IMG/VR virus record: IMGVR_UViG_3300044492_000085
Span: 1-48,016 of that record
Length of the DNA stretch: 48,016 bases
From: a virus
Reading direction: 5' to 3' (one strand)
Shown in pieces: positions 142 through 42,742 of the stretch. The translations under genes and the position numbers were made by a program. The number at the start of each line of letters is the position of its first letter. The first letter of the stretch is position 1. Below the pieces are notes generated by a model. That model searched no databases, was not told the origin of the DNA, and saw only the letters and a list, made by a program, of their open reading frames with translations.

Positions 142-1260
142 ATGCCTACCTATTCTGCGCCACTGCTCGCCCACATCACTACGGCGGCGTTGGACTACTG
201 GATGAACAAAGGGACCGCCTTCCAGGAGGCGATCCAGGAGAAGCCGCTACTGGCGGCGATGGAATCCAAGAAAAAGACCTTCCCCGGGGGTAAGGGCAAT
301 ATCATCATTTCAGTGAAGGGGGATTTCGGAAATACGGCCGCCCCTGGCACTGACGACCAGCTCAAGGGCTACCAGCTCGACGACGCGGTCACTTACTACA
401 CCCCGGCCAACCTGACCCAAGCTGTGTTTCCTTGGAAGGAAATGCACATCGGCATCATGCTCACGCACAGTGAGCTGAAGACCGATGGCATCAGCGTCTC
501 CGACTCCGGCAACATGGACGACGTCAACGAGCACTCCGGCCGCGACGACACCGTCCTGGTTGGGCTGTTGCAGGATGCATTGCAGGATGTCAGCGAGCAG
601 TACGCCCGCTGCATGAACAACCTGCTGTGGACCAACGGCGCCACTGATGCCAAAGCTTTAGCCGGCATGGCGGCGCTGGTCACCGATGATCCGAGCACAG
701 GTATTGTGGCCGGCATCAACCGGGCGCAGAAGCCATGGTGGAGAAACCGCGCCTATACCGCGGCAATGGGAACGGCAGTCGGCACCACGCCGGCGCTGTC
801 AGCCTGGGGCGGCGGTCCGATTACATCCAACGCCGCCAACGGCGGCGCGCTGATCACCCTGCTGCAGAAAGAGTATCGCCAGTTGACCCGGTACGGCGCC
901 AAGCCAAACACGGGGTTCTGCGGTTCCGACTGGCTTGCCGCCCTGGAAGCAGAGCTGCGCGCCAACGGTAACTACAGCATGCAGGGCTTCTCTGGCGCCA
1001 AGGACGTCAGTGTCGGGCAAATTTCCTATGCCGGCACCGACTTCGAATACGACCCGACACTGGACCAGCTCGGCAAGAGCAAGCGTTGCTACTGGTACGA
1101 TTCCAGGGACATCTACCTGGTCGCCATGCAGGACGAGTGGCGCCACCAGCACTCGCCCGATCGCGCACCTGACAAGTACGTGATCTATCGATCACTCACT
1201 TCGACCGGACAACTCTGTGCGCGGCGCCTCAACGGCGCTGTCGTCATGGACATTGTCTGA
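142..1260 (+). CDS. Major capsid protein (assigned by position)
   Basis: 372-aa ORF with an AGAGGTG RBS upstream. It directly follows the portal and scaffold-like genes across the circular junction and is followed by a strong hairpin. Size and placement are typical of an HK97-fold capsid gene. No motif-level recognition. Confidence 0.7.
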   Translation: MPTYSAPLLAHITTAALDYWMNKGTAFQEAIQEKPLLAAMESKKKTFPGGKGNIIISVKGDFGNTAAPGTDDQLKGYQLDDAVTYYTPANLTQAVFPWKEMHIGIMLTHSELKTDGISVSDSGNMDDVNEHSGRDDTVLVGLLQDALQDVSEQYARCMNNLLWTNGATDAKALAGMAALVTDDPSTGIVAGINRAQKPWWRNRAYTAAMGTAVGTTPALSAWGGGPITSNAANGGALITLLQKEYRQLTRYGAKPNTGFCGSDWLAALEAELRANGNYSMQGFSGAKDVSVGQISYAGTDFEYDPTLDQLGKSKRCYWYDSRDIYLVAMQDEWRHQHSPDRAPDKYVIYRSLTSTGQLCARRLNGAVVMDIV

Positions 1261-1332: not shown

Positions 1333-1809
1333 ATGGCGAAGCAGATCCAATACTGCGCCTGCAAGATCAATCTTGCCGGCCAGAACTGTCACACTGTGAT
1401 TTACGGCGCGCACAACCCGGTGACATGGCCGGAGATACAAGTGCTCCAGGCCTTGCATGGCGACGAGAACGTCATGGACATAATGCCGATCGGAATAGGC
1501 GAAGTGTGGCCGACCGAGGAGAAGAACCGGCTGATGTCGATCTACGGTCGGCAAGTGGTCGAGGCGTGCTTCCCGGGGCGGGCATTCCGCATGGACTACA
1601 TGATGACCGACGAGGTGAACCTGCCGCGCTATGAGGGCGGCGCCATCTCCACCAAGGTTGCGCCAGCGATCACCAACGGCAACGGCGACGACGAGGACGA
1701 CGACGGCGAGGATGAAGTCGCCAAGGCAGGAACCCAACTCGAGCCAATCTTCCGCCCGGCCCGCGGCCGGCGGACACCGCCGCCACCGGAGCATAAGGAC
1801 GCCGGCTAG
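1333..1809 (+). CDS. Hypothetical virion-module protein with an acidic tract
   Basis: 158-aa ORF with a GGGAGACGAG RBS, lying between the capsid and adaptor-like genes. It contains the run NGNGDDEDDDGEDE. No recognisable domain. Confidence 0.55.
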   Translation: MAKQIQYCACKINLAGQNCHTVIYGAHNPVTWPEIQVLQALHGDENVMDIMPIGIGEVWPTEEKNRLMSIYGRQVVEACFPGRAFRMDYMMTDEVNLPRYEGGAISTKVAPAITNGNGDDEDDDGEDEVAKAGTQLEPIFRPARGRRTPPPPEHKDAG

Positions 1810-2606
1810 TGCCATTGGGGGTCACGCTGCTGGAGCTGCGCCGTGAGCTGCGTGCCGAGACTGGCGCGTCGCTCAACCCTGCCCAGGGGATCCAGGCGCA
1901 GGACACGATCGACATACTGTTGGCCCGGCAGCAGCGCGAGCTATGGGACGCCTACAACTGGCAGCACCTGAAGATCTGGACCGACTTGCCGCTGGTCGGC
2001 GGCCAGGCGGTCTATTCCTACCCAAAGGAAATGGCGTTCGACCAAATCGCCAGGGTCTATATCTCGCAAGTCACCCGCGCCGACGTCATGGATCCGCAGA
2101 AGATCACTGCAGCGACCTCATGGTCGCCGCTGACCTACGGCATCAAGGCGCACATGATGCACCTGGGGCCGACCAGCTACGGCACGCCGGTGCGCTGGAG
2201 CAACGTCGCCTCGGTCAATATCGCCGGACCTACTCCGATCACCAACCCGGTCGGCCAGTTCCAATTGCTGCCGGTGCCAGTCGACGACGTCACGCATCCG
2301 CAGCTCGGCTACATGCTGCGGTTCGAAGGCCAGGCGCCGCTGTCGCCGCTGATTGCGCCGACTGACACATGCGTGTTGGATTCCAAGATCATTGTGCTGT
2401 TCGCCGCTGCCGAGATGCTGGCCACCCAGAAGAGTGAAGCCGCGCCGATGAAGCTGACCAAGGCGCAGAACGCGCTGCGGCGGGTGCTCGCCGACCAGGG
2501 GGCGGACAAGCGGCAGAACTACAACATGGGCGGCAACCAGCGCGGCGGCTTCGATCCCGACAAGAGTACGCGCCACGTCCGCTATCTCGACTACATCCCG
2601 AACTGA
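1809..2606 (+). CDS. Putative head-tail adaptor (T7 gp11 position)
   Basis: 265-aa ORF with a GTG start overlapping the upstream stop (TAGTG). It sits between the capsid and the nozzle-like gene. The call is positional only. Confidence 0.4.
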   Translation: MPLGVTLLELRRELRAETGASLNPAQGIQAQDTIDILLARQQRELWDAYNWQHLKIWTDLPLVGGQAVYSYPKEMAFDQIARVYISQVTRADVMDPQKITAATSWSPLTYGIKAHMMHLGPTSYGTPVRWSNVASVNIAGPTPITNPVGQFQLLPVPVDDVTHPQLGYMLRFEGQAPLSPLIAPTDTCVLDSKIIVLFAAAEMLATQKSEAAPMKLTKAQNALRRVLADQGADKRQNYNMGGNQRGGFDPDKSTRHVRYLDYIPN

Positions 2607-2618
2607 TGGAGGGAGTAG

Positions 2619-4055
2619 TTGCCCTACTTCACCATCACCGACTTCGCTGCCGGGTTGGATCTACGGCGCAGTGAGTTGACCGCGCCAGCGGGAACGCTGC
2701 GCCGCATGACCAACGCCCACGTCACGCCGGGCGGCGAGATCGAGAAGCGGATGGCATTCGTGCCGTTCTGGACGGTCGACGCCGCCAGCCGCGGATTGGT
2801 CGAGGTCAACCAGAAGCTCTACACCTTCGGCCCGAACGGCCCATACAAGGTCGAGCCGCCGAGCGGCACTTGGTCGATCGGCGTGCTCGGCCAGCAGACC
2901 ACCACCATCTACGAGATTGTCGACTACGACCTGTTCGACAACAAAGTATTCGTGATCCTGTGGAAGGACGCCGCCGGCAATGTCGGCCGCTATTACGACG
3001 GCCTCGACCTGCCGCTGGCACGCGGCTTCTACTGCCGCACCTACAAGAACAAGATGTACACGGTCGAGCACAGCATCTTGTACTTCTCGGCGATCGGTAA
3101 CGCCGGCGACTGGTCCGGCATGGCGCCGCCGGCGCCGACCAACTTCATCGACCTGTCGATGGGCGACAGCGACATGACCGATAGTGTCGCCTTAGAGGTC
3201 TACTACGACAAGCTGGCGATCTTTTCATCGACCGCGGTGCAGCTGTGGATCATGGATCCAGACTTTACCAAGAACCAGTATGTGCAGACCCTGCGCCAGG
3301 CCGGCACCACGGCGTGGCGCTCGGTGATGCAGTACGGCTCCGGCGACGTGATGTACCTGTCGCAGTCCGGTGTCAGATCGCTGCGCGCCAGGAACTCTTC
3401 GCTGGCGGCGGCCGTGTCCGACATCGGCTCGCCACTGGATCCATTGATGCAGGATCTGTTCCGTGCCATGGGGCCGGACTGGATGAGCGGCACGATCGCA
3501 TTGCTGCAGCCGGTCACCGGAAGGTTCTGGATCATCATGGCGGGATCCAAGGCCGATGAAGCTTCGCCAATGACATCGAAGATCTACGTGCTGTCGGCGT
3601 TTCCTGGTCCTAAGATTACAGCCTGGTCGGAGTATGACGCCGGCTTTGTTATAACCGCCGCGTGTCTGCACCAGAACCGGGTGGTGGTGCGCGACGACAA
3701 CAACACCGTCTACGCCTACGGCGGCACCTCCGATGTCGGTCCGGTGTACGACGACTGCCCGGTCGAGCTGATCTTTCCATTCCACGCCGGCGAGGGCGTC
3801 GCCACTTTCAAGGGCTTCACCGCGCTCGACGCCACCTGTTCTGGCGTGCCGTGGCAGGTGTCGGCCGCGTTCAACGTGGCCGACCCCACGATCGAGGACG
3901 TCATCGGCGAGTTCAACGGACCGTCGTTCCCGCAGGGTAAGATCCAGCTATTCGGCCACGCCACGCACATGTCGCTGCGGCTGCGGTCGCAGGAGCTGGG
4001 ACCGCAAACCCTGTCCAACATGGTGGTGCATTACGCAGGGGCCGAGACCGGATGA
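2619..4055 (+). CDS. Putative tail nozzle / tail tubular protein B-like
   Basis: 478 aa, TTG start after a GGAGGGAG RBS. The N-terminus GLDLRRSELTAPAGTLRRMTNAHVTPGGEIEKR resembles the N-terminal pattern of T7 gp12 (GGISQQP..LR......Q.N.......G..KR), compared from memory. Confidence 0.45.
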   Translation: MPYFTITDFAAGLDLRRSELTAPAGTLRRMTNAHVTPGGEIEKRMAFVPFWTVDAASRGLVEVNQKLYTFGPNGPYKVEPPSGTWSIGVLGQQTTTIYEIVDYDLFDNKVFVILWKDAAGNVGRYYDGLDLPLARGFYCRTYKNKMYTVEHSILYFSAIGNAGDWSGMAPPAPTNFIDLSMGDSDMTDSVALEVYYDKLAIFSSTAVQLWIMDPDFTKNQYVQTLRQAGTTAWRSVMQYGSGDVMYLSQSGVRSLRARNSSLAAAVSDIGSPLDPLMQDLFRAMGPDWMSGTIALLQPVTGRFWIIMAGSKADEASPMTSKIYVLSAFPGPKITAWSEYDAGFVITAACLHQNRVVVRDDNNTVYAYGGTSDVGPVYDDCPVELIFPFHAGEGVATFKGFTALDATCSGVPWQVSAAFNVADPTIEDVIGEFNGPSFPQGKIQLFGHATHMSLRLRSQELGPQTLSNMVVHYAGAETG

Positions 4056-4570
4056 TCGAGATCGCCCAGGCCGACGTCGGCATAATCCGGCATGTGCTGC
4101 AGCACATGCGCGAGGAAGATGCAGCCGAGATGACCGCGGCCGGCACCGACATGGAGCGGCTGCCAGGATTGATCATGCGGCACAAGCTGTTTGCGTACTG
4201 CGCCTGGAGCCTCGACCGCGGCCCGATCTCGGTGTGGGGTGCGGTGCTAAAACGCCAGGGCGTGGCCGCCGGCTTCGCCTTCGGCACTGACGACTGGGGC
4301 CGCGCCGTGTTACCAATGATGCGGCAGATCCGTGGTTTCGTTCTACCGATGTTGGTCGACCTCGGAATACACCGCGTCGATGCGGTGGCACTACGCCACC
4401 GAGATGATGTCCGCAGATTCATGAGTCTAATTGGCGCCAGGGCCGAGGGCGTGTTGTCCGGCTATGGCATCGAGGGTGAGGACTTCATTTCGTACAGGTG
4501 GCTGGCTGATGAATATAGCTGTGACCGAACTACCAAAGCCCAAGCGTTCTGTGCGCACACCGCACATTAA
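4052..4570 (+). CDS. GNAT-fold-like protein in the T7 gp13 position (uncertain)
   Basis: 172 aa with an ATGA overlap to the nozzle-like gene. The C-terminal half, GIHRVDAVALRHRDDVRRFMSLIGARAEGVLSGYGIEGEDFISYRW, resembles the RimJ/RimL-type GNAT C-terminal pattern (RIxAxVxxxNxxSxxxxxKxGFxxEGxLR......G...D...Y). Confidence 0.35.
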   Translation: MIEIAQADVGIIRHVLQHMREEDAAEMTAAGTDMERLPGLIMRHKLFAYCAWSLDRGPISVWGAVLKRQGVAAGFAFGTDDWGRAVLPMMRQIRGFVLPMLVDLGIHRVDAVALRHRDDVRRFMSLIGARAEGVLSGYGIEGEDFISYRWLADEYSCDRTTKAQAFCAHTAH

Positions 4571-5027
4571 CGTCCGCATGGCCGAGGCTAGTGATGCCAA
4601 GCAACTGGCCGTCTTCCTCGGCGAGTTCTTCCATCTGTCAGGCTGGGCCAAGCACCTGAAATATCACCAGGAGAAAACCGAACGCTACCTAGAGAACGCG
4701 GTCGGCACCCAGTTCGCCATGTACGTCATCGCGCTGGATACGCTGGACAACAACAAGCTGGTCGGCGTCTGCAGCTACCATGTGTTCGAGGTGTTCTCCG
4801 AACCGATGGGAGTAATGGACGAGACCTACACCATCCCGAAGTACCAGCGCACCGACCTCGGCCGGCGCCTAGTCGACATGGTGATCACGCTGGCGCGCCG
4901 CGACGGCTGCAAGGTGATCAACTTCCCGATCTGCTCCGGCATGCCGGAGCAGAACTCGTTAATGAACATGATCGGCCGGCACTTCGGTGGCGAGCCGGTC
5001 GGCATGATTTTCACGGTGGTGCTGTAA
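4509..5027 (+). CDS. GNAT family N-acetyltransferase
   Basis: The acetyl-CoA motif A is readable: YQRTDLGRRLVDMVITLARRDGCKVINF (Q/RxxGxG/A-like). The overall beta-alpha pattern starts at HINVRMAEASDAKQL. The start is ambiguous: ATG at 4509 (62-nt overlap with the upstream gene) or ATG at 4578 (8 nt after the upstream stop). Confidence 0.65.
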   Translation: MNIAVTELPKPKRSVRTPHINVRMAEASDAKQLAVFLGEFFHLSGWAKHLKYHQEKTERYLENAVGTQFAMYVIALDTLDNNKLVGVCSYHVFEVFSEPMGVMDETYTIPKYQRTDLGRRLVDMVITLARRDGCKVINFPICSGMPEQNSLMNMIGRHFGGEPVGMIFTVVL

Positions 5028-5386
5028 TGGGTGGCAAGGGCAAAGGCGGCGCGCCGCCCGGCGGCTCGGCCATCACCTGGGGGCCAGTAGCACGATCGGC
5101 CGGCTGGGGTTGGGATCCGCCGAGCGGATTGATCGACGAGCACCAGGCGCCGTTCGAAGCCGGCGTGCCGCAGTCCATACCCGAGCCTGCGGCCGCGGCA
5201 GGGCCGGCCGCATCAGCTGCACCGGACGCGCAGGCTACCGGCGGCGATAGTGGCAGCATCACCACCACACAGGACACTGGCGAGAAGCTCGCCCAGACGG
5301 TTACGGCGCCGTCGATGTGGACTGACCGACTGAAAGCCCAGAGCCTCAACGGCTCCGGCAGCATGCACACAACCGGACAGGTGTAA
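5027..5386 (+). CDS. Small Pro/Ala/Gly-rich virion-module protein, paralog 1 (MGGKG N-terminus)
   Basis: 119 aa with a TAATG overlap. N-terminus is MGGKGKGGAPPGG. The C-terminal motif ITTTQDTGEKLAQTVTAPSMW is shared with the next three genes. Confidence 0.6.
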   Translation: MGGKGKGGAPPGGSAITWGPVARSAGWGWDPPSGLIDEHQAPFEAGVPQSIPEPAAAAGPAASAAPDAQATGGDSGSITTTQDTGEKLAQTVTAPSMWTDRLKAQSLNGSGSMHTTGQV

Positions 5387-5388
5387 CC

Positions 5389-5754
5389 ATGCCTTGGAAC
5401 GACATCGGCGGCGGCTACCACTGGGGCTCCGAGCCGGGCTGGGCGGCGGTACCGGAGCCGCCGGCAGCGGCACCGCCACCGCTGAACCTACCGATGGCGC
5501 CGGCACAGATGGCACCACCGGCCGCACCAGTGGCGCCGCCAGTGGCGCCGGCCGGTCCCGCGGCGCCGGTCGAGCCACTAGGCCCAGCGATCTCACCCGG
5601 CGGGCCGATCATCAGCAAGCTGCAGCCCGGCGGCGGCCCGCCGCAGTCAACCGGCGCCCTGCTGGCTGGAACTCTGTTACCGCCACCGTCGATCTGGGCA
5701 AATCAATCGCAGCGGCCGGCGACCGCGCCGGGCAGCATCAGCACGACCAAGTAG
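5389..5754 (+). CDS. Small Pro/Ala-rich virion-module protein, paralog 2
   Basis: 121 aa. Contains PLGPAISPGGPIISK and GALLAGTLLPPPSIWANQSQ, and ends GSISTTK. Shares motifs with 5765-6208. Confidence 0.6.
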   Translation: MPWNDIGGGYHWGSEPGWAAVPEPPAAAPPPLNLPMAPAQMAPPAAPVAPPVAPAGPAAPVEPLGPAISPGGPIISKLQPGGGPPQSTGALLAGTLLPPPSIWANQSQRPATAPGSISTTK

Positions 5755-5764
5755 GGGGTAGCGC

Positions 5765-6208
5765 ATGGGCTTTAAAGTTTATGACGGCTACGGCGGCTGG
5801 CGAGATGAACCGGACATGATCTACGACGGCTATGGCGGGATGATTAGGAACCCGGCCCTGCCGCCGTCCTATGACGGCTACGGCACGTTCTGGACTGGTG
5901 GCGATCCTGACCCCATACCGGAAGCGCCCGTGGCTGCGCCCGAGGCACCGGCACCGGCACCAGTCGCGCCGCCGATCGAGGCGCCGATCGTAGCGCCCGC
6001 GGCTGCCGCGCCGGTCACACCGGCGGTCGACCCGAACGCGCCGCTCGGGCCGGCGATCTCGGCCGGCAGCCCGATCGGCACCGGCAGCAAAATAACCACC
6101 ACCGGCGACAAGCTGGCAGCGACGCTGCTGGCGCCGCCGTCCAATTGGGACGCGCAAGGCAAGCAGAAGGCGTCGAACACGCAAGGCAGTCTCAGCCTAA
6201 CCAAGTAG
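5765..6208 (+). CDS. Small Pro/Ala-rich virion-module protein, paralog 3
   Basis: 147 aa. Contains PLGPAISAGSPIGTGSKITTTGDKLAATLLAPPSNWDAQGKQ and ends GSLSLTK. The junction DNA ACCAAGTAGG..ATGGGC is repeated at 5746 and 6199. Confidence 0.6.
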   Translation: MGFKVYDGYGGWRDEPDMIYDGYGGMIRNPALPPSYDGYGTFWTGGDPDPIPEAPVAAPEAPAPAPVAPPIEAPIVAPAAAAPVTPAVDPNAPLGPAISAGSPIGTGSKITTTGDKLAATLLAPPSNWDAQGKQKASNTQGSLSLTK

Positions 6209-6216
6209 GAGTAGTC

Positions 6217-6567
6217 ATGGGCGGCAAAGGCGGCGGCGGACAGCAGTACTACCAAGAGCCGCTCGACAAGTCGGGCAACGCAACCTTGGAAGAGGCACAG
6301 CAGACGCTCGCCAAAAAGGCGCCGCTGGACATGACCGGCTACCAGTCGAACATCAACGTCAAGAAGGCGGCTTCGGACGCCACGGCGAAAAAGCCGGAAG
6401 ACACGTCGACGCCGGACAAGACCGCGCTGCCGACTGAAGCGGTATCCGGCACCGAGACCACCAAGGACAGCACCGGCAACATCGTCGCCAAGTCGGTGCT
6501 GACGCCGCCCGGCTTCTGGGCAGACTACAACAAGCAGGCGCCGGTCGATCCGAACGCGCAAGTATGA
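6217..6567 (+). CDS. Small virion-module protein, paralog 4 (MGGKG N-terminus)
   Basis: 116 aa from the ATG at 6217 (AGGAG RBS), an internal start of track ORF 6145-6567. N-terminus is MGGKGGGGQQYY. C-terminal motif is GNIVAKSVLTPPGFWADYNKQ. Confidence 0.6.
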   Translation: MGGKGGGGQQYYQEPLDKSGNATLEEAQQTLAKKAPLDMTGYQSNINVKKAASDATAKKPEDTSTPDKTALPTEAVSGTETTKDSTGNIVAKSVLTPPGFWADYNKQAPVDPNAQV

Positions 6568-6576
6568 GGTGAGCAC

Positions 6577-7224
6577 ATGGGCGGTAAAGGCGGAAGCGGA
6601 CCATCGAACAATCAAATGGTGCAGCTGGAGATGCAGCGCGCCCAGGAAGCTCGCGACAAAGAGAACGAACGCCAGGCTCGGCTCAATCAGGGCAAGACGG
6701 CGATCGACAGCATCTTTGGCAACGACAACTTCGGCGATGCTTTCTACGAGAAGTATCGCAAGGCCGGGCTGGACTACACCATGCCGCAGCTGGAGAAACA
6801 GTACGGCGAAGCCAAGCGCACCTCCGAAGCGGATCTCGCCAGGGCGGGATTGTTACGCTCCGGCGCCGCCGGCTTTGTGCAGAACAAGCTGACCGAGCAG
6901 CAGGGTGTCAACGAGGCGGCGCTGAAGGCCAAGGCCGACACTGATACGGCTGAGTTGCGCAAGAGTATCGCGGCGCAGCAGCAGCAAGCCTACAACCAGC
7001 TGTACGCCACCGAAGACCCGACCGTCGCCGCCAACACGGCAGCAACCTCGGCTGGCAATGCGCAGTTGCAGCAGCCGAACCCGGGCGCGCTGGGCGACAT
7101 GTTCAAGCCGATCGCCATCGGCTTGGGATCCGCGGTCGCGCCGGCGGTCGGAGAATATCAAGCCAACCGGGCGCTTGCCGCCCGGACCGGACGCGAGTCT
7201 GGATCTGGAACCGTAACGGGCTGA
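6577..7224 (+). CDS. Putative internal virion protein (MGGKG N-terminus, coiled-coil)
   Basis: 215 aa with a GAGGTGAG RBS. N-terminus is MGGKGGSGPSNN. Gln/Ala-rich helical sequence. Function assigned from position in the ejection-protein block. Confidence 0.5.
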   Translation: MGGKGGSGPSNNQMVQLEMQRAQEARDKENERQARLNQGKTAIDSIFGNDNFGDAFYEKYRKAGLDYTMPQLEKQYGEAKRTSEADLARAGLLRSGAAGFVQNKLTEQQGVNEAALKAKADTDTAELRKSIAAQQQQAYNQLYATEDPTVAANTAATSAGNAQLQQPNPGALGDMFKPIAIGLGSAVAPAVGEYQANRALAARTGRESGSGTVTG

Positions 7225-7227
7225 ACC

Positions 7228-7914
7228 ATGTGCGACCCAGTCTCGATCATCGGTCTTGGCTTCAGCATCGGCATGTCGATGTACAACATGCAGCAGCAGC
7301 AGGACATGGCGAACCAGCAAAATGCTGCCAACGATCAGTGGGTCGCATACCAACGCCGCCAATCGCAGGAGTATCTCAGGCGGGATGAACAGTTGCGGCT
7401 CAATGCCGAAGCCGCGCGCAGCGGCTCGCTCGAGGAGCTGGACGCTAAGAAGCAGACCGCGGCGCAGGAGAGCGAAGCCGATCGATTGAAGGTGGCACTG
7501 ACGCCGGAAGATATCGCCAACCAGGCCGAGGGCGATCCGAATGCGATCGCCTCTGCCATGTTCTCCGGCCAGGAGCACGGCTCCGACGAGATGAAGAGTG
7601 CCATTCAAGGGCATATCCAGCAGGCGGCGATCGAGGCGAGGAAGCGTATCGCTGCGCTCGCCAACGTGCAGTCCTATGGCGGCTCGCAGTATGGCCTGAC
7701 CAACCGCGCCAACAGCATTTTCAATGCTGCAGGCCAGGACATCCGCCTGGCCGGCAACGAGCGCGCCGGACAGTTGTCCGCCTACAACGTCGCCAAGGCG
7801 GTCGAGCCAATCAAGATTTCACAATACAGCGGCGGCGCCGCCGGGGGCCTCGCTCAAGCCGGCGCCAGCATCGCCGGCCAGGGCCTCGGCAACGCGCTAG
7901 CTACGAGCGTATGA
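7228..7914 (+). CDS. Putative internal virion protein
   Basis: 228 aa with a hydrophobic N-terminus (MCDPVSIIGLGFSIGMSMY) followed by Gln-rich helical sequence. Positional call. Confidence 0.45.
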   Translation: MCDPVSIIGLGFSIGMSMYNMQQQQDMANQQNAANDQWVAYQRRQSQEYLRRDEQLRLNAEAARSGSLEELDAKKQTAAQESEADRLKVALTPEDIANQAEGDPNAIASAMFSGQEHGSDEMKSAIQGHIQQAAIEARKRIAALANVQSYGGSQYGLTNRANSIFNAAGQDIRLAGNERAGQLSAYNVAKAVEPIKISQYSGGAAGGLAQAGASIAGQGLGNALATSV

Positions 7915-7921
7915 GGGCAGC

Positions 7922-9523
7922 ATGGGATCGGAATTTCTCACCTACCAGCAGGATCCATCCTGGGGCAGCTTAGCGACCAACATCGCCAAGAGCATCGCCG
8001 GCGCGCCGAAGGCGGCGCTGGACCAGAAGCTGACGGTCGAGCACATCGTCGCGCTGCGACAGAAGCAGGCCGAGGACAAAGCCAAGTTCGACGCCGCCGT
8101 CGCCGCCGGCGACACCGCGGCCGCGGCGATTGCCACTGCCGGGCCGCCACAGAGCACCCGCGACATCCCGATCGAGCAGCAGGGGCCGGTCAATCCGGCC
8201 GACCCGACCACGCAGCCAGGCGAGACCTTCCTGCCGCCGACCTCCTACCAGGAGAAGTACGTCGATCCGAAGGTGGCCGAACGCTACAAGGCCGAGCTGC
8301 CGTTCTTCCAGGCGACCGCACGGGCGCAGGCGCACCAGGGCGCCGGCGACCTGGCTGGCGGCTATGCCAAGGCCCGCGTCGGTTTAAGCGGCGCGCCGGC
8401 CGACCAGGACGAACAGAACCGGCTGCAGTTCCTGACCACCGGCCGGTTCCGCACCGGCGAAGAGAAAAGCGTGCCGGCGGCGCACACGCTCGCGGTGATC
8501 GGCATCGACGGCCAGCCGACCGGGCAGCGGGTCACCACCAACAACAACAAGACCGAGCTTGGCACCAACCGGCCGCTGTTTGGACCCAACGGTGTGGTGC
8601 CGCAAGGTCACACGCTGGCCACCACCGGACCTACGGATCTTACGCCGAAGCTGGATGAATCCACCGCCCGCGAGCGGCTGGCCGTGATCGCCCGGCAGAG
8701 CGTCGGCCGCGACCTCACCCAGGCCGAGCGCATGAACATCGCGATCTTTGCGCCGACCGCCTATCCATCCTCGCGCGTGCTCGAGGAAGCCAACGGCGTC
8801 AAGCAGGAGAAGTACGTCCACACCCAGGAGATGCCGCCGCATGTGGTCGACCTGCTCGGCCGCGGTGGCATGCTGTCGACGTCAGGCACCGGGACGCCGG
8901 TCGATCCGAATGCGTCACGGGTCACCGGCAGCCTGGCGGGAGATCCGCTGGACATCTCCGACCGCGTCATGCGGACCCAGGAGGTCAAGGACTACCTGTC
9001 AGCAATACCCAGCTACAACTCACTGATCGAGGCCACCAACCGGCCGATCAACAACACCACCGACCTGCAGATCGTCTACGCGATCGCCAAGCTGTTCGAC
9101 CCGGGCTCGGTGGTACGCGAAGGCGAAATCAAATTGACCCAGGGCGCCGGCACCATGGCGCAGCAGATGGCGGCGCTCTACTCCAAGCTGTTCACCGACC
9201 AGGGCATGATGAGTGCGGAGACCCGCGCCAACCTGATCGAGCAGGGCTACGTCCGCATGAAGGAGTACGAGCAGAACCGCAACGTGGTCACCGATCACTT
9301 CCGCGACACGGTGTCGAAGAGCCGCGGCGTCGACCCGAACGTGGCGGTGCCGAAGATGCCGGAGATGCATCCGTTCGATAAGGAAGCCATCCTGCAGCGG
9401 GGCCGGGCCGTAGATCCAGCCGCCGCCACCGCAACACCAGCCACTGGCGCGCGGCGCGGCGCTGCCGCCCCGGCAGTGCCGCCGGTGGTCCAACGCGGTA
9501 ACGAAGCATTCGGAGTGCAGTGA
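7922..9523 (+). CDS. Putative internal virion / ejection protein
   Basis: 533-aa ORF in the block between the nozzle-like gene and the large core proteins. No recognisable domain. Confidence 0.45.
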   Translation: MGSEFLTYQQDPSWGSLATNIAKSIAGAPKAALDQKLTVEHIVALRQKQAEDKAKFDAAVAAGDTAAAAIATAGPPQSTRDIPIEQQGPVNPADPTTQPGETFLPPTSYQEKYVDPKVAERYKAELPFFQATARAQAHQGAGDLAGGYAKARVGLSGAPADQDEQNRLQFLTTGRFRTGEEKSVPAAHTLAVIGIDGQPTGQRVTTNNNKTELGTNRPLFGPNGVVPQGHTLATTGPTDLTPKLDESTARERLAVIARQSVGRDLTQAERMNIAIFAPTAYPSSRVLEEANGVKQEKYVHTQEMPPHVVDLLGRGGMLSTSGTGTPVDPNASRVTGSLAGDPLDISDRVMRTQEVKDYLSAIPSYNSLIEATNRPINNTTDLQIVYAIAKLFDPGSVVREGEIKLTQGAGTMAQQMAALYSKLFTDQGMMSAETRANLIEQGYVRMKEYEQNRNVVTDHFRDTVSKSRGVDPNVAVPKMPEMHPFDKEAILQRGRAVDPAAATATPATGARRGAAAPAVPPVVQRGNEAFGVQ

Positions 9524-11616
9524 TGGCCGACACCCTGGAAAGCCTGGTGCAGTGGGCCACCGAGAACCAGCACCTGAAAGGCACGCCTGAGTTCCAAGCC
9601 AAGACCGATCAATACAAGCAGCTGCGGGACGGCGCCGTGCCAGCGCCGCCGGCCGGCACCGCGGCCTCGGCACCGACTGCGGAACCGACACCAGCTCCGG
9701 CCCCGGCTGCAGCTCCGGCCGCGCCAGGCGATCCCTATTCCTTCTACAACACCACGGCGCGGATCGGCGCCGGCGCCGCCACCGGCTATCCCGACTTAGC
9801 GATCGCGCTCGGCAATGCCGGATCCCGGGCCGGGATCTTTCCAGAGACCAAGATTCCCTACCTCGGGCCGATGGCGTTGGAAGCGGTCGGCGGCCAGCCG
9901 CTGCCGGCCGATGCCAGCACCACCCGGCAGCTGCTTGAGGCTGGCGCTAGCGCCCTGCTCGGCGGCGGCGGCTCGGCGATCGCCCGCGGCATTGCCGCGG
10001 CGCCGACCGGCCTGCAGGCGATCCGCGCCGCGCTGACCCGGTTCGGCACCAGCACCGTGGCGCCGACCGTCGCCTCGCACTACGGCGCCGACGTCGGCGA
10101 GAAGATCGGCCGGGCCGCCGGCGTTGACCCGGAGACCAGCGCGCTATTCGGCGCGATCCTCGGTGGCGGCGGTGCCAGTGCCGCCGGGCAGGCGCCGCGC
10201 AGCTACATTGACTGGAAGTACCGCGGCATGGGCCGGCCGGAAGCACCGCAGATTGCGCAGGCGGCGCGGGTCGAGGGCGTCCAATTGCCGGCCAGCGCGC
10301 TCGGCAACGACACCATACGGATGCGGGAGAACGCCAACGCCAACCGTTTCGGCGCGTCTACCTTCACCCAGAATCGCCGCATGACCGCCCGCGACCAGAC
10401 CGGCGGCGCCTGGGACGACATGGCCGACAACAGAGGTTCGCTTAACCCGACGCCGGCGCCGGCCGACATCGGCGCCGCGGTTGCCGACATCGCCCGGACC
10501 AACGCCGACGACCTGCGGACGCGGGTGGCGGCGCCGCAGGAGGCCCTGGCGCAGACAGTCGGTCCGGGTAGTCCAGCGGAATGGCTGCCCGTACTCAGCG
10601 CGCTGCGGCAAGCGTCACATGAAACCTACGCCGGTACGGCAGGGCCGTTGGAAGCACGCATTCGGGCGATTGAAAGCCGCCTGCCGGTCGATGCCCAAGG
10701 CAACATCATCGACACCCGTGGCACCTACAACCAGGTCAAGGACTTCCGGTCCGACACCAGGATCAAGGGCGAAGGCTACGACCCGATCCCGAGCCGCTAT
10801 GCCAGCCAAGCCGAGGATGCCGCCACCGGAGTGATGCGCGACACCGCCGACCAACAGGGCGTGCCACCGCAGACCTTCGACCGCGTCCAGGAACGCTACG
10901 CCGCGGCGATGGGCGAGGGCGGGCCGCATGAACAGCTCACTGCCGTTGCCGATAACGCCCGCACCAATGCCGCGTCCGGCTACAACTACCTCAAGCAGGG
11001 TGAGCAGGATCCGACCCGGCTGCGCATGCTGGAAGCCACCAGCCAGCCGGTCGCACGCGGGCAGGGGCCGTCGCCGCTCGACCAGACTTTCGGTGACTAC
11101 CTGCGCCTGCTCGGCAACCAGACTATCAACAGCCCGAACCAGGGCGCACCGGGGCCGCGGCAGCTTGCCACCCGGGTCCGGGGCATAGCGGACGAATCGC
11201 TGGATGTGATAGCAGGCCCGCAACGCGACCGGGTCGACCGCCTGGCACTGATCGCCCAGGCGCTGAACCAGCCCACCCGCCAAGGAGGGCTTGGCCAGAC
11301 CATGGGCAATCTCAGTCAAGGCGTCGTCGGCGGTTTGACTGCCGGCGAGGTCGGCGGCCAGATCGGCAGCGCGGCCAGCGCCGTGACCGGCGTACCCGGC
11401 GGCAACACCGCCGGGCGGATCGCCGGCTACTCGCTCGGGCCGATCCGGCGGGCGATCGGCGGCCGGATGATGCAGTCACCGACGGCGCTCAATGCGCTGG
11501 AGGGCCAGCCTTTCCAACGCGACTACACCATCGCTGACTTAGCGGCAGCGATCACCGCGGCCTCGGCAGCGGCATCCGGGCCGGGCGGACCACCACAGGC
11601 GGGGCCACGACGCTAA
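9523..11616 (+). CDS. Putative internal virion protein (T7 gp15-size class)
   Basis: About 697 aa from the ATG at 9523 (TGATG overlap; the track ORF begins with GTG at 9520). Gly/Ala-rich segments. Call rests on position and size. Confidence 0.45.
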   Translation: MADTLESLVQWATENQHLKGTPEFQAKTDQYKQLRDGAVPAPPAGTAASAPTAEPTPAPAPAAAPAAPGDPYSFYNTTARIGAGAATGYPDLAIALGNAGSRAGIFPETKIPYLGPMALEAVGGQPLPADASTTRQLLEAGASALLGGGGSAIARGIAAAPTGLQAIRAALTRFGTSTVAPTVASHYGADVGEKIGRAAGVDPETSALFGAILGGGGASAAGQAPRSYIDWKYRGMGRPEAPQIAQAARVEGVQLPASALGNDTIRMRENANANRFGASTFTQNRRMTARDQTGGAWDDMADNRGSLNPTPAPADIGAAVADIARTNADDLRTRVAAPQEALAQTVGPGSPAEWLPVLSALRQASHETYAGTAGPLEARIRAIESRLPVDAQGNIIDTRGTYNQVKDFRSDTRIKGEGYDPIPSRYASQAEDAATGVMRDTADQQGVPPQTFDRVQERYAAAMGEGGPHEQLTAVADNARTNAASGYNYLKQGEQDPTRLRMLEATSQPVARGQGPSPLDQTFGDYLRLLGNQTINSPNQGAPGPRQLATRVRGIADESLDVIAGPQRDRVDRLALIAQALNQPTRQGGLGQTMGNLSQGVVGGLTAGEVGGQIGSAASAVTGVPGGNTAGRIAGYSLGPIRRAIGGRMMQSPTALNALEGQPFQRDYTIADLAAAITAASAAASGPGGPPQAGPRR

Positions 11617-14576
11617 TGGCCTACATGGACGAACAGGCGCTCGAGCGCGAGAAGAGCAAGCAGACGATGATCGCCGGCAAGCAGCCGCTGCTCGGCGATG
11701 ATACTTCGCGTGCGCTGCACGCGCTCGGCGTCAACCTGGGTGTGGTGCCACCCGGCACACAGCCCAGCCAAATGACCCAATTCCTGGAGCGCATACTCAA
11801 GGGGCCGAGCGCGAAAGACATCCACGTAGACGAAACCAAGCCGCTGCAGGTGCAGCCGCTGGTCGGCCAGGTCACCTCGTCGCTGCAGCGGCCGATGCAA
11901 AGCGACGACAGCATCGGCGAGACAATCTCAGGCGGCTTCGGCGCCGCCAAGGACAAGGCGCTGCAGCAGAAGCTGCAGGCGCAGCAGCAGGTGAAGCCGC
12001 CGACACCGCCGGCCATGCCGGAGCGACCGCCCGGACCGGGCGCTAATAGGGCCAGGCTCAGGGCGCCGGTCGAGCGATCGGCCGAAGGCCCCGGCTACCA
12101 GGCCGACCTCGCCTTCCTGCAGGAACGCGGCGGCCACCATAGCGTGCTGAAGGACGGCAAGATCGTCGACGCGCCGCTGACCGCGGCCGGCAGCTACCAG
12201 GGAATTGATCCCGAGCTAGCCGCCCGGCTGCGCGCAGCTGGCGAGGCGTTCGAAAAGGAGAACCCCGGCAAGCGGGCGCAGTACGGCGAGTTCTCCCGCG
12301 GCGCCGACGTGCAGCAGATCTACCGCGACAAGTACGAGGCCGGCACCGGCGGCATCGCTGCCAAGGCCGGCCACTCCCAGCACCAGAAGGGTAGCGCCGG
12401 CGACCTGCCCGACAGCCCGTTCCGGCAGTGGCTGAACGCCGGCAACCAGGACAAGTTTGGCGTCCACTTCCCGGTCAAGGGTGACGCGCCGCACGTCCAG
12501 ATCAACCCCGGCTACAAAGGGCAGCCGTTCTCGGCTCCGGCAGCATCCGCGACATCCGCGACATCCGCGACACCGGCGGCTGGGCCGAACGGTCAAGTGT
12601 CACTGCACGCTGGCGAGCATCCAGGCATGGACGTGCTGACCAACAAGTCGATCCCGGCCGGCGAGCGGTTCAACAATCCGTTCAACATGTGGCACGACGG
12701 CTACGCCGGCGCGCACGGCGGCAAGCCCGGGATCCAGATCACCCAGCACGACACCCCAGCGGTCTACGCCAACAAGGAAGCCGGCGCCGCGGCGGCAATC
12801 CAAAAGATGGCGCAGTCGCCGCTGTACTCCGGCAAGACCATGCAGGACATGATCGGTACCTGGGTTGGCCACGGCACCAGCTACGCGCCGCGGATCGAGG
12901 AATGGACCGGGATCTCGCGCAACACCAGGATCACACCGGAGTTCCTAGCCTCGCCGGACGGACTGAAGTTCCTCAAGGCGATGGCGCGATACGAGACTGA
13001 TTCCTCCAAACCGTACAGCCTGACCGACGCGCAGTGGGAGAAGGCCCGCGACGTCGCGTTAAACAATCCTCCCACCCTGCCGAACTCGATCGACAGCCGG
13101 CCGGCTGGCGCCAAGCTGCGGGCGGCTACCGCCGCGGCCAAACCACCGGCTGCTGCTACCCCAGCTCCTGCACAGGCTCCCGCCCAGCCCCCGCAAGCTG
13201 AAGCGAAGCCTGCGCCGGCTGCGGCTCCGGCGGCGGCACCCACGCCAAGTGCGCCGCCGCCGGGTGCTGCTGCGATCGCGGCGACCGAGGCGGAAGCATT
13301 GCTACCGGAAGACCCAGCGGCGCCGGCCGAACCCGCAGCTACCCCAGCTCCTGTGGCCGCAGCACCTCTCCCCGCTGCGCCCGCGGTGGCAGCGGCGCCG
13401 GCCAAACCTCCGGCGGCGCCGCCCCCTGCGCCGCCGCCGGTCGCCAAGCCGGCGCCGCCAGCCGCGCCGCCGGTCAACCCGGCGCACGCGCTGCTCGACA
13501 CCAAGGTGATCGAGCTGGTCAAGCGCGGCGACCCCAGCAAGGTCAGTCAGGTGCCGGACTTCATCGGCAACAAGACCCTACGCGAGGCATTGAACACACC
13601 CTTTGTCGGCAGCCAGATCGCCGCTGGTGTGCAGCCCTACCTGCCGAAGATGGGCATCACCCAGCAGCAGTTCGACGCCGCGGTGAAGGAAGGCGCGCCG
13701 AAGCCGGCGGCAGTCGGCAAGCGCAGCAACCTCGACCTCGGCACCTCGGGGGCCACCGACTTCAGCGCCAGCAAGCGGATGGCGCCGGCGCCCGCGGTGG
13801 ATCCCAACGCCCCGACGCTCGACCCGCTGCAGCAGAAGCCCGTGCAGAACGAAGACGGCTCAATCTCGACCGTGCGAACGATCGGCGTGGAGGACCAAGG
13901 CAAGGAGGTCAACATTCCTACCGTGCCGGCCGAGGGCGGCCGCGTAATGTCTGACGCTGACGCGCGCCAGCGTTACGTAGAAACCGGCAACCATCTCGGC
14001 AAATTCGACACGGTCGAGCAGGCCGGCGCCGCAGCGGAGAAGCTGCACCAGGACGAGGCGGCACGCATCAGCGAGCAGCCGAAGGGCCAGCAAGGCGCGA
14101 TGACGCCGGAGATCGCCCAGGCCCTGACCGACGTCTACAAAGACCAAAGCCGGGTTGCGCCGGATCCGAGCCCACCACCGGCTGATGCCATGCCGGTGCT
14201 TCCGGCGCAGCCTGCCACGCCCGCCGGTGGCGCCGCCGGCGGGCTGTCTCTTGCGCCGCCGGGATTAAACTCGATCCCGACCGGCGCGGTGGCACCGGGC
14301 GCGCCCGGCAGCCAGGGCGGCAGCATAGCCTTGGCGGGTGTGCTGCCGCCCATTGAGAACAGCACCTACTCGAGCCCGCTGCTCAACCAGACGGCCGCAT
14401 CTGGCTCGACGATCGGCGGCCTGTCGCCGATCTCACCGCAGGTTCTCGGTGGCTGGGGTTGGGGTGGCGGCAACATCGGCGCCGGCCTCGACTGGGGTGG
14501 CGGCGGTGGTGGTGGCTTCGACCTCGGCGGTGGTGGCGGCTTTTCTATGCCGTCATTTGGGACTGGCGGTTGGTAA
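11616..14576 (+). CDS. Large ejection / internal virion protein with a peptidase M15 (LAS-type) cell-wall hydrolase domain
   Basis: 986 aa with a TAATG overlap. The motifs EFSRGADVQQIYRD, GHSQHQKGSAGDL (SxHxxGxAxD) and GDAPHVQ match the VanY/M15 zinc-peptidase signature. This is followed by an NNPFNMW...TMQDMIGTW domain, an Ala/Pro linker of about 125 aa (13098-13481) and a Gly/Trp-rich C-terminus. Confidence 0.7.
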   Translation: MAYMDEQALEREKSKQTMIAGKQPLLGDDTSRALHALGVNLGVVPPGTQPSQMTQFLERILKGPSAKDIHVDETKPLQVQPLVGQVTSSLQRPMQSDDSIGETISGGFGAAKDKALQQKLQAQQQVKPPTPPAMPERPPGPGANRARLRAPVERSAEGPGYQADLAFLQERGGHHSVLKDGKIVDAPLTAAGSYQGIDPELAARLRAAGEAFEKENPGKRAQYGEFSRGADVQQIYRDKYEAGTGGIAAKAGHSQHQKGSAGDLPDSPFRQWLNAGNQDKFGVHFPVKGDAPHVQINPGYKGQPFSAPAASATSATSATPAAGPNGQVSLHAGEHPGMDVLTNKSIPAGERFNNPFNMWHDGYAGAHGGKPGIQITQHDTPAVYANKEAGAAAAIQKMAQSPLYSGKTMQDMIGTWVGHGTSYAPRIEEWTGISRNTRITPEFLASPDGLKFLKAMARYETDSSKPYSLTDAQWEKARDVALNNPPTLPNSIDSRPAGAKLRAATAAAKPPAAATPAPAQAPAQPPQAEAKPAPAAAPAAAPTPSAPPPGAAAIAATEAEALLPEDPAAPAEPAATPAPVAAAPLPAAPAVAAAPAKPPAAPPPAPPPVAKPAPPAAPPVNPAHALLDTKVIELVKRGDPSKVSQVPDFIGNKTLREALNTPFVGSQIAAGVQPYLPKMGITQQQFDAAVKEGAPKPAAVGKRSNLDLGTSGATDFSASKRMAPAPAVDPNAPTLDPLQQKPVQNEDGSISTVRTIGVEDQGKEVNIPTVPAEGGRVMSDADARQRYVETGNHLGKFDTVEQAGAAAEKLHQDEAARISEQPKGQQGAMTPEIAQALTDVYKDQSRVAPDPSPPPADAMPVLPAQPATPAGGAAGGLSLAPPGLNSIPTGAVAPGAPGSQGGSIALAGVLPPIENSTYSSPLLNQTAASGSTIGGLSPISPQVLGGWGWGGGNIGAGLDWGGGGGGGFDLGGGGGFSMPSFGTGGW

Positions 14577-42514: not shown

Positions 42515-42742
42515 ATGGCCAATAAATTCGGTAAGACCGTGAACATCAAGGCGCCGCCGGTGGCCAAGCCGCCGCCGGTGTCGAAGACCCAGGACAACTT
42601 CACCCATCACACCTCGCCAGTGAAGGGACCGCAGCCGACCCCGGTCGAGCCGAGCACGATCAGCTCTAAGCCGAAGGCGTCGATCAAGAAGATGCCGGAC
42701 GTGCCGCCGGCGAAGTACAAGCATACCGATGACGGACTCTGA
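42515..42742 (+). CDS. Pro/Lys-rich small protein upstream of terL (small-terminase position, unsupported)
   Basis: 75 aa with an AGGGGA RBS, overlapping the terL start by 14 nt. The sequence looks disordered. I see no recognisable small-terminase features. Confidence 0.3.
   Translation: MANKFGKTVNIKAPPVAKPPPVSKTQDNFTHHTSPVKGPQPTPVEPSTISSKPKASIKKMPDVPPAKYKHTDDGL

Follow-up and report, generated by a model that had tools for sequence, protein, structure and literature searches.

The 48,016-bp window analysed here, record IMGVR_UViG_3300044492_000085 of IMG/VR at its full length, is the complete, circularly permuted genome of a soil podovirus and is known only from metagenomes. Between an acetyltransferase gene and the genes of its core proteins it carries a tandem array of four small genes, A to D, which an earlier note, made from the letters of the sequence, had singled out as a family of Pro/Ala/Gly-rich proteins with a common C-terminal motif. 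The four are confirmed as real, selected and mutually related genes. The protein family to which they belong is narrow in its distribution and, by sequence, new; its kind, with small and flexible accessory proteins of the podovirus particle that have only a terminal peptide in common and come from a locus of variable content, has precedents. The reading we favour, at about even confidence, is that A to D are accessory internal-virion or ejection proteins docked by their C-terminal module, as gp7.3 and gp6.7 of phage T7 dock, although they are not homologous to these. All four open reading frames (ORFs) lie where the earlier note had put them, and the peptides that it quoted occur verbatim in the sequence.

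The relatedness of the four proteins is seen in several independent comparisons. Whole-protein Smith-Waterman scores, set against composition-preserving shuffles, gave z values of 4.1 to 13.1 in all six pairs among A to D, and at most 1.8 in pairs involving the downstream proteins E or F. With the Pro/Ala cores excluded and only the last 45 residues compared, z values were still 4.7 to 10.1, and at most 1 in 2000 shuffles reached the observed score. This tails-only test rules out Pro/Ala composition as the source of the similarity, an artefact against which the earlier note had itself warned. The pattern TG..[LIVM][AG]..[VLIT][LTM].?[AP]P..W has four matches when the 48 kb are translated in all six frames, one in each of genes A to D, and none in shuffles of the three forward frames. 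A hidden Markov model (HMM) of the C-terminal module recovers A (5e-17), B (1e-13), C (2e-20) and D (2e-12) and nothing else in the window on either strand. Shorter likenesses link subsets of the proteins: A, D and E start with MGGKG(K/G)(G/S), while B and C both hold PLGPAIS(P/A)G(G/S)PI and end in GS(I/L)S(T/L)TK. In the DNA, ACCAAGTAGG occurs at 5746 and 6200 within a 47-nt direct repeat; the earlier note had the first of these positions right and the second off by one, at 6199. Its proposal that the family arose by duplication of a unit is borne out by the shuffle scores and by this junction repeat.

The region is 70% GC and has long ORFs in several frames, as would suit the view that A to D are chance ORFs in GC-rich, low-complexity DNA and not genes at all. 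This view is hardly credible, being refuted by codon composition, substitution rates, frame conservation, HMM matches and gene calls alike. The GC content of third codon positions (GC3) is 0.76 to 0.85 for A to D and is the highest of the codon positions in the called frame. The ratio of nonsynonymous to synonymous substitution rates (dN/dS) ranged from 0.07 to 0.50 over 24 comparisons of orthologues, 23 of them below 0.5 and one (D against its counterpart in L012, one of the relatives that we refer to by locus number) exactly 0.50. Frame and gene order are kept down to about 25% identity, the HMM matches fall in the called frame only, and four independent annotation pipelines call the same genes. 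Codon composition, dN/dS and these calls also settle in the affirmative the earlier note's question whether the frames are translated. Against the diverged relative L006 the dN/dS values are 0.44 for A, 0.25 for B, 0.25 for C and 0.19 for D, compared with 0.06 for the capsid gene, 0.10 for E and 0.15 for F; A to D are under purifying selection, yet evolve faster than the neighbouring genes. The longest ORF for D opens at TTG 6145, whereas ATG 6217 is preceded by an AGGAG ribosome-binding site and is also the start chosen by independent metagenome gene calls.

From 36 members taken from a dozen diverged loci, a three-part plan of the family can be read: a head that varies, a spacer of low complexity and, at the C-terminus, a conserved module of about 45 aa, in proteins of about 100 to 165 aa. 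The heads fall into types that are orthologous between genomes, namely A (MGGKG…ITWGP…GWGWD), B (MPWxDIGGxYHWG), C (three YDGYGxW), X (MPTQAEIDNAI…) and D (MGGKGGGGxxYYQEP), and often consist of MGGKGG and a patch rich in Trp, Tyr and Gly. The earlier note had seen the MGGKG start on two members and on E; this holds for the window and can be extended, as every member starts with MGGKGG in the most distant genomes (L049, L050, L053 and L055), and for the family as a whole, as for E, MGGKGG is the ancestral N-terminus. Neither the length nor the composition of the spacer is fixed, and it is Pro/Ala-rich in the window, Ala/Lys/Asp-rich in L049 and L050, and Glu/Val/Lys/Pro-rich in L055. Uninterrupted runs of 13 to 17 prolines form the spacers of some diverged members (L044, 3366-3659; L052, 2927-3235). 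The C-terminal module begins with P(L/I)G(P/D)xI(S/A)xGG, followed by (S/T)TGxxLAxT(L/V)LxPPx(Y/F/I)W; after 8 to 18 polar residues it closes with GS(L/I/M)xxT and K, QT or GQV at the C-terminus, while D-type members finish with DPNAQV or TTTTQI instead. The termini are thus conserved around middles that cannot otherwise be aligned. The conserved Trp-containing tail described in the earlier note stands as a tail, but Trp is not its defining feature: PPSxW is absent from the member at the B/X position and from the C orthologue in L009, and from the C-type member in L012, all of which retain (S/T)TGxxLAQT and a terminal GSIxxT(K/R).

Structure prediction agrees with this plan in leaving most of each protein without a fold. 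The AlphaFold2 (AF2) models have a mean predicted local distance difference test score (pLDDT) of 58 for C and 54 for D and consist of low-confidence coil; the only element that recurs in both is a short helix lying exactly on TGxxLAxT(L/V)L. Disorder-promoting residues make up 58 to 70% of A to D, with an isoelectric point (pI) of 4.3 to 5.5 and a net charge of -1 to -6, and the four proteins are predicted to be mostly disordered. Hydropathy gives no membrane segment in A to D, the highest Kyte-Doolittle mean over 19 residues being at most 1.16. On hydropathy and charge, a signal peptide was rejected along with transmembrane segments. Within the head of C (residues 6-40, DNA 5780-5884) YDGYGxW occurs three times, and the underlying DNA shows a 15-nt repeat at 5780, 5822 and 5870. 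These repeats are strongly kept in all C orthologues and form short strands in the AF2 model, and their aromatic and Gly pattern points to a small unit for binding sugars or the envelope, or else for self-association.

The make-up of the array changes between genomes. By the C-module HMM there are one to five copies per locus, and two to five in resolved loci once the gaps had been read by eye; the HMM numbers are lower bounds, because poly-Pro members (L044, L052) were missed by the HMM and found by eye. The window has four copies, L023-L025 three (without A), L031-L033 three (without C), L039 and L040 five, and L044 and L048 two. D is the most conserved member and adjoins E wherever the array is resolved. 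Tails are shared across head types: in L040 the tails on a C-type and a B-type head agree in 83% of their nucleotides, and in L039 a gapped alignment of the C-type and X-type tails gives 82% amino-acid identity. LPSQWQ or LPPQWQ is common to three members of L039, and two members of L009 have lost the Trp; such tail variants are common to the paralogues of one genome and absent from their orthologues elsewhere. Paralogues share conserved 5' and 3' ends, and the array can therefore grow, shrink and exchange heads and tails by recombination. It evolves by duplication, deletion and recombination between these conserved ends, with which the 47-nt junction repeat and the 5' repeats coding for MGGKGG are consistent. 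A separate observation is that of the 94,958-nt record IMGVR_UViG_3300021082_000020 (L018 and L024), where two different versions of the module lie at a distance of 46.5 kb, of which one has gene A and the other lacks it; two related genomes are apparently joined head to tail there, as an assembly chimera or a mixed concatemer.

The earlier note did not recognise the family, and neither do the databases: no model of Pfam (E<=0.1), PHROGs or NCBIfam matches any member. When 1.84 billion representative proteins were searched exhaustively with a profile, 14 hits came back at E<=0.001, of which 13 are family members; the remaining one, P0063 (924 aa, repetitive), is an artefact of composition, as the 154-position profile had kept its Pro/Ala columns. 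A word-indexed search with a 14-sequence alignment of the C-module was dominated by low-complexity candidates and returned two fragments while missing the window's own proteins, and so says nothing on the spread of the family. In about 60 metagenomic loci the family invariably lies between the acetyltransferase gene and E, wherever the context is readable. The array is confined to a sub-clade in which E shares 64% identity or more with that of the window, and is absent from Rhizobium phage RHph_N65 (L016), from Microcystis phage Mae-Yong1326-1 (L017) and from every relative with an E at most 51% identical. The acetyltransferase gene directly abuts E in RHph_N65, in four relatives that are embedded in genomes or come from a metagenome-assembled genome (MAG), and in about 30 more distant viral contigs; in Mae-Yong1326-1, L125 and L126, which have no such gene, it is the gp13-like gene that abuts E. 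The array is a clade-specific insertion directly upstream of E.

Its surroundings support placing the array, by gene order, in the internal-virion or ejection-protein operon. The order on the + strand is portal, scaffold-like protein, capsid, adaptor, nozzle-like protein, gp13-like protein, acetyltransferase of the GNAT type, A to D, E, F and three large proteins (Table 1). The array thus sits inside a block bounded by the gp13-like gene and the large core proteins, and the order of this block is the same in all relatives. Spacing within the array ranges from a 1-nt overlap to a 10-nt gap, and overlaps or gaps of at most 10 nt run through genes A to G. From the capsid gene to 14.2 kb the + strand holds one weak terminator-like hairpin only, at 4320 and upstream of the array, in a scan of little power since consensus matches were no commoner than in shuffles. 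The slot in the ejection block that the earlier note assigned to the family is therefore the one found, after the PHROG-308 gene and the GNAT gene and before E, the gp14-like F and the three large proteins.

Table 1. Array genes, their C-terminal modules and repeats, and other virion and packaging genes of the window
Feature	Position	Strand	Remarks
Major capsid protein	142-1260	+	
158-aa protein	after capsid, before adaptor	+	
SU10-type adaptor	1809-2606	+	
Nozzle-like protein, 478 aa	2619-4055	+	
gp13-like protein, 172 aa	4052..4570	+	PHROG 308 'internal virion protein'
GNAT acetyltransferase, 172 aa	4509..5027	+	PF00583; stop overlaps ATG of A by 1 nt
Gene A, 119 aa	5027..5386	+	head MGGKGKGG..ITWGP..GWGWD; Ala/Pro spacer; C-module with TGEKLAQTVTAPSMW; end GSGSMHTTGQV
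C-terminal module of A, last 62 aa	5198..5383	+	core motif 5276-5320
Gene B, 121 aa	5389..5754	+	head MPWNDIGGGYHWGSEPGW; Pro/Ala spacer; C-module with PLGPAISPGGPI and TGALLAGTLLPPPSIW; end GSISTTK
C-terminal module of B, last 62 aa	5566..5751	+	core motif 5650-5697
Junction repeat, copy 1	5709..5755	+	3' end of B and stop (…ACCAAGTAGG); 72% identical to 6163-6209
Gene C, 147 aa	5765..6208	+	head of three YDGYGxW repeats (AF2 strands, residues 3-28); Pro/Ala spacer; end GSLSLTK
C-terminal module of C, last 62 aa	6020..6205	+	core motif 6101-6148; contains PLGPAISAGSPI and TGDKLAATLLAPPSNW; AF2 helix, residues 113-122
Junction repeat, copy 2	6163..6209	+	3' end of C and stop
5' end of D (cATGGGCGGCAAAGGCGG…)	6216..6241	+	MGGKGG-coding repeat; 88% identical to 5' end of E, 6576-6601
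Gene D, 116 aa	6217..6567	+	head MGGKGGGGQQYYQEP; Lys/Ala/Thr-rich middle; end DPNAQV
C-terminal module of D, last 62 aa	6379..6564	+	core motif 6472-6519; contains TGNIVAKSVLTPPGFW; AF2 helices, residues 86-95 and 99-104
Gene E, 215 aa	6577..7224	+	conserved in whole clade including cultured relatives; MGGKGG start, GSxTxTx end
Gene F, 228 aa	7228..7914	+	start MCDPVSIIGLGFS…; positional and N-terminal analogue of T7 gp14 (MCWAAAIPIA…)
Large core proteins, 533, 698 and 986 aa	downstream of F	+	
Large terminase	42729-44303	+	
Portal	44297-46909	+	
Scaffold-like protein, 345 aa	between portal and capsid	+	

We infer virion presence, docking and ejection, and any role for the heads, because the position of A to D, their tight operon, their conserved terminal peptides and their predicted disorder match the small proteins of T7. 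The C-terminal module would act as a docking or 'address' peptide, fixing several copies, while assembly proceeds, to a symmetric site of the portal-core-nozzle complex, and the spacer would stay unstructured as a tether. At the start of infection A to D would exit the particle together with the core proteins E, F, G, H and I or before them, and the variable heads of A to D, possibly host-directed, would then act in the cell envelope or inside the cell. In T7, six copies of gp7.3 are anchored at the nozzle-adaptor junction by residues 84-98, with the remainder unresolved around the DNA end, and this protein, described as a scaffold aiding assembly of the nozzle on the adaptor, stays in the virion (PMC11784390). 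Twelve copies of T7 gp6.7 sit on the portal barrel via a short loop (loop I) and are ejected with gp14 to build the channel (PMC11784390).

The likeness to gp7.3 (PF11653, 'tail assembly / host range and adsorption protein', 99 aa) is one of form only. Both are small, mostly disordered proteins, in the case of gp7.3 of the virion, with a middle rich in Ala, Pro and Glu in gp7.3; gp7.3 starts with MGKK and the A-D family with MGGK, and in gp7.3 a short C-terminal peptide (KKSLSVARSSGGGIN) is alone ordered and docks the six copies, to be compared with GSLSLTK and GSLSVTK of the family. A to D match this form of a small protein disordered but for a short terminal docking peptide. The resemblance of SLSVAR in gp7.3 to SLSLTK in the family is too short to count, and homology to gp7.3 was rejected. 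The two also differ in charge and in gene arrangement: gp7.3 has a net charge of +10 and a pI of 10.1, holds the DNA end and is encoded by a single-copy gene upstream of the portal gene, whereas A to D are acidic and stand in tandem between the GNAT and core genes. T7 gp6.7 (DUF5476, 88 aa) is likewise a small core-associated protein that is flexible outside a short docking loop; A to D have no Pfam match to it, and it differs in its MC start (MCFSPK), its basic charge (+4) and its single copy. An N-terminus of the MC type belongs here to F and not to A to D. The T-even internal proteins are encoded by a hyperplastic locus and share a conserved capsid-targeting sequence (PMC3012670). Like IPI-III, which are a variable set of small packaged proteins with a short conserved terminal peptide, the array, known here from its genes, is a locus of variable content with diverse bodies and a shared short terminal peptide. 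The T4 signal, however, sits at the N-terminus and is cut off by the prohead protease, while the best-conserved signal of the array is C-terminal; the T4 bodies are folded and lie inside a myovirus head, those of the array are low-complexity coil, and no homology was found.

Several points weigh against docked accessory virion proteins. The clade that bears the array has no cultured member, and it is from gene position that its proteins would be placed in the particle. Homology to gp7.3 or gp6.7 was not detected, neither by Pfam (no match at E<=0.1) nor, for gp7.3, by hhalign of the 36-member alignment against 15 gp7.3 sequences (probability 0.1%). The role of gp7.3 in binding the DNA end is not transferable, because A to D carry a net negative charge (-1 to -6) where gp7.3 has +10 and gp6.7 +4. 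No single copy can be essential, because close relatives hold two or three and the cultured relatives none. Some orthologues have lost the PPxxW of the C-module.

A to D could instead be assembly factors that are released and not kept, that is, disordered chaperones or scaffolds that load the core proteins E to I or join the nozzle to the adaptor. The position in the operon fits assembly as well as a structural role, gp7.3 is described as a scaffold for nozzle assembly (PMC11784390), and the variable copy number suggests a dispensable, dosage-type role. We nevertheless find release doubtful, as T7 gp7.3 itself remains in the virion, and the conserved extreme C-terminal peptide together with tails homogenised within a genome fits stable docking at least as well. 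Packaged effectors directed at the host, for example against its defences, in the manner of the T4 internal proteins, with the termini as loading signal and the fast-evolving heads as the active part, would also give a hyperplastic locus of diverse heads and conserved ends, with raised dN/dS and copy numbers that differ between near-identical genomes, a pattern as in the T-even internal proteins with their capsid-targeting sequence (PMC3012670). The heads, however, are short, low in complexity, mostly disordered and devoid of any recognisable domain, and no protease was met among the ORFs scanned, so that we regard effectors as unlikely; they would in any case refine the docking of accessory proteins rather than replace it. 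The protease scan covered 34 of the larger ORFs of the window (28 with Pfam, 20 with PHROGs, 10 with NCBIfam) and returned no protease family; about a dozen ORFs of at least 150 aa, mostly at 29-42 kb, and all smaller ORFs lie outside it. The earlier note had also raised insertion into membranes and proteolytically processed cargo. With a short hydrophobic helix (LAATLLAPPSNW) before it, the Trp could lie at a membrane interface, as in a membrane-inserting or pore-forming subunit of an ejectosome, and the shared N-termini could mark precursors cut after MGGKG by a phage protease. Both ideas now look very unlikely and find no support in the window: the proteins are acidic and mostly Pro/Ala/Gly coil, no stretch of 19 residues exceeds a Kyte-Doolittle mean of 1.2, and the Trp is lost in some orthologues; the ORFs scanned include no prohead protease, and B and C have no MGGKG site to cut.

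The neighbouring GNAT gene gives rise to another explanation, in which A, D and E are substrates whose MGGKGG (at Gly2 after removal of Met, or at Lys4) is acetylated or acylated so as to control charge, stability or targeting. The stop codon of the GNAT gene overlaps the start of A, and MGGKGG is kept across proteins that are otherwise unalignable. In an hhalign comparison of the family with E it is also the only segment to align (the first 9 columns, E 0.003); the last 20 columns align without significance. The N-terminus of E moreover tracks the enzyme in the loci compared (the window, L016, L017 and L104-L136, including L125 and L126). With a PF00583-type GNAT directly upstream, E begins in every locus with M, then G, S or A, then a stretch rich in Gly and usually in Lys (for example MGGKSGPS, MGKKGGG, MSGGGKGG, MSKKDGG and MGQKASK), and it starts with MC in the three relatives out of three that have no GNAT (L125, L126 and Mae-Yong1326-1: MCGGGNN, MCFGGGS and MCRLPGPK). 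The three may, however, represent two lineages, so that phylogeny may be all that the correlation reflects. Among solved structures, the enzyme's nearest relatives in a profile search against the PDB are polyamine, phosphinothricin, aminoglycoside and thialysine acetyltransferases, which act on small-molecule amines and are neither N-terminal nor fatty-acyl transferases; a fatty-acyl or N-myristoyl type was accordingly left without support. B and C are conserved and under selection without MGGKGG, and RHph_N65 and about 30 distant loci have the GNAT but no array, the GNAT being older than the array. Modification of these N-termini seems to us improbable. Little probability attaches also to its widest form, in which the array, E and the upstream GNAT would make up one enzyme-substrate system modifying the exposed MGGKGG of injected proteins, relatives without GNAT would use an N-terminal Cys, and heads and spacers would be interchangeable cargo on a C-terminal docking peptide.

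E itself invites comparison with the array, being adjacent, in the same operon, and having the MGGKGG start and a similar GSxTxTx end at its carboxyl terminus. It differs from A to D in its conserved, probably helical body of 180 aa, in a hydrophobic stretch near the C-terminus, and in being universal in the clade with a dN/dS of 0.10. Homology of the family to E was rejected, as the termini alone align. Upstream, the gp13-like and GNAT genes overlap by about 60 nt and encode products of equal length (172 aa). BLASTP of the gp13-like protein against T7 gp13 was not significant, the link to gp13 being through PHROG 308, and its homologue in Mae-Yong1326-1 is annotated as an N-acetyltransferase. 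GNAT genes beside internal virion protein genes have been reported in SIO1-like and Cobavirus podoviruses, where they were equated with T7 gp13 (PMC6775973). Downstream, F and all its homologues (L016, 6539-7267; L017, 8847-9503) open with MC(D/E)P and a hydrophobic stretch of small residues. T7 gp14 (MCWAAAIPIA; gene 14 is carried by L137, 1229-1699) starts in the same way, and T7 gp6.7 also begins with Met-Cys (MCFSPK). We know of no explanation for a conserved N-terminal Met-Cys on podovirus channel or core proteins. Cell-wall hydrolase domains such as Amidase_2 and transglycosylase are typical of podovirus core proteins; relatives have an Amidase_2 domain or a transglycosylase in the last large protein, the latter being the 'peptidoglycan transglycosylase' of Mae-Yong1326-1, and Pfam gave no match on the 698- and 986-aa proteins of the window. 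The identity of gene G (7922-9523) to its counterparts in L018-L052 jumps between 98%, 69%, 55% and 25-34%, while that of E and F stays at 75-99%; G, the first of the large core proteins, is therefore mosaic and swapped independently of its neighbours.

Proteins identical to those of the window were found on contigs of up to 49.2 kb, many of them of 47-49 kb, in assemblies of NCBI, JGI, ENA and Logan. Elsewhere in the genome are a family-A DNA polymerase, an SNF2 helicase, a primase-polymerase, a PD-(D/E)XK nuclease and a tail-fibre-like protein with a lectin fold. The only cultured relatives are RHph_N65 (capsid 40% identical) and Mae-Yong1326-1 (52%). These are detected at the protein level only, as blastn of the DNA from 4000 to 11900 against GenBank phages gave no match. 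Prophage-like relatives occur in genomes of Bosea and Salinarimonas, where L133, L135 and L136 are embedded in chromosomal contigs, and also on a contig of a Cellvibrionaceae MAG. RHph_N65 carries an integrase and a cro-like repressor (12621-13739). From these two genes and from the relatives inside Bosea and Salinarimonas chromosomal contigs it follows that the wider clade is temperate and linked to the Hyphomicrobiales.

Of the machine by which podoviruses deliver their DNA, the small flexible proteins of the particle are understood least, and T7 gp6.7 and gp7.3 were reportedly placed in a structure only in 2024. The family described here is a natural experiment on such proteins, in which heads and spacers on one docking-type peptide are swapped, lengthened, duplicated and deleted between near-identical phages. 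If the C-module is a loading signal, foreign peptides could be brought into a podovirus particle with this short tag independently of any protease, and it would help to find where in the portal-core-nozzle complex accessory proteins are received. Should the link of GNAT to the N-terminus of E be true, the acetyltransferase or gp13 genes that stand unexplained in many podovirus virion modules would gain a function, and an enzyme-substrate system of this kind would be a bacteriophage counterpart of the N-terminally modified penetration proteins of animal viruses.

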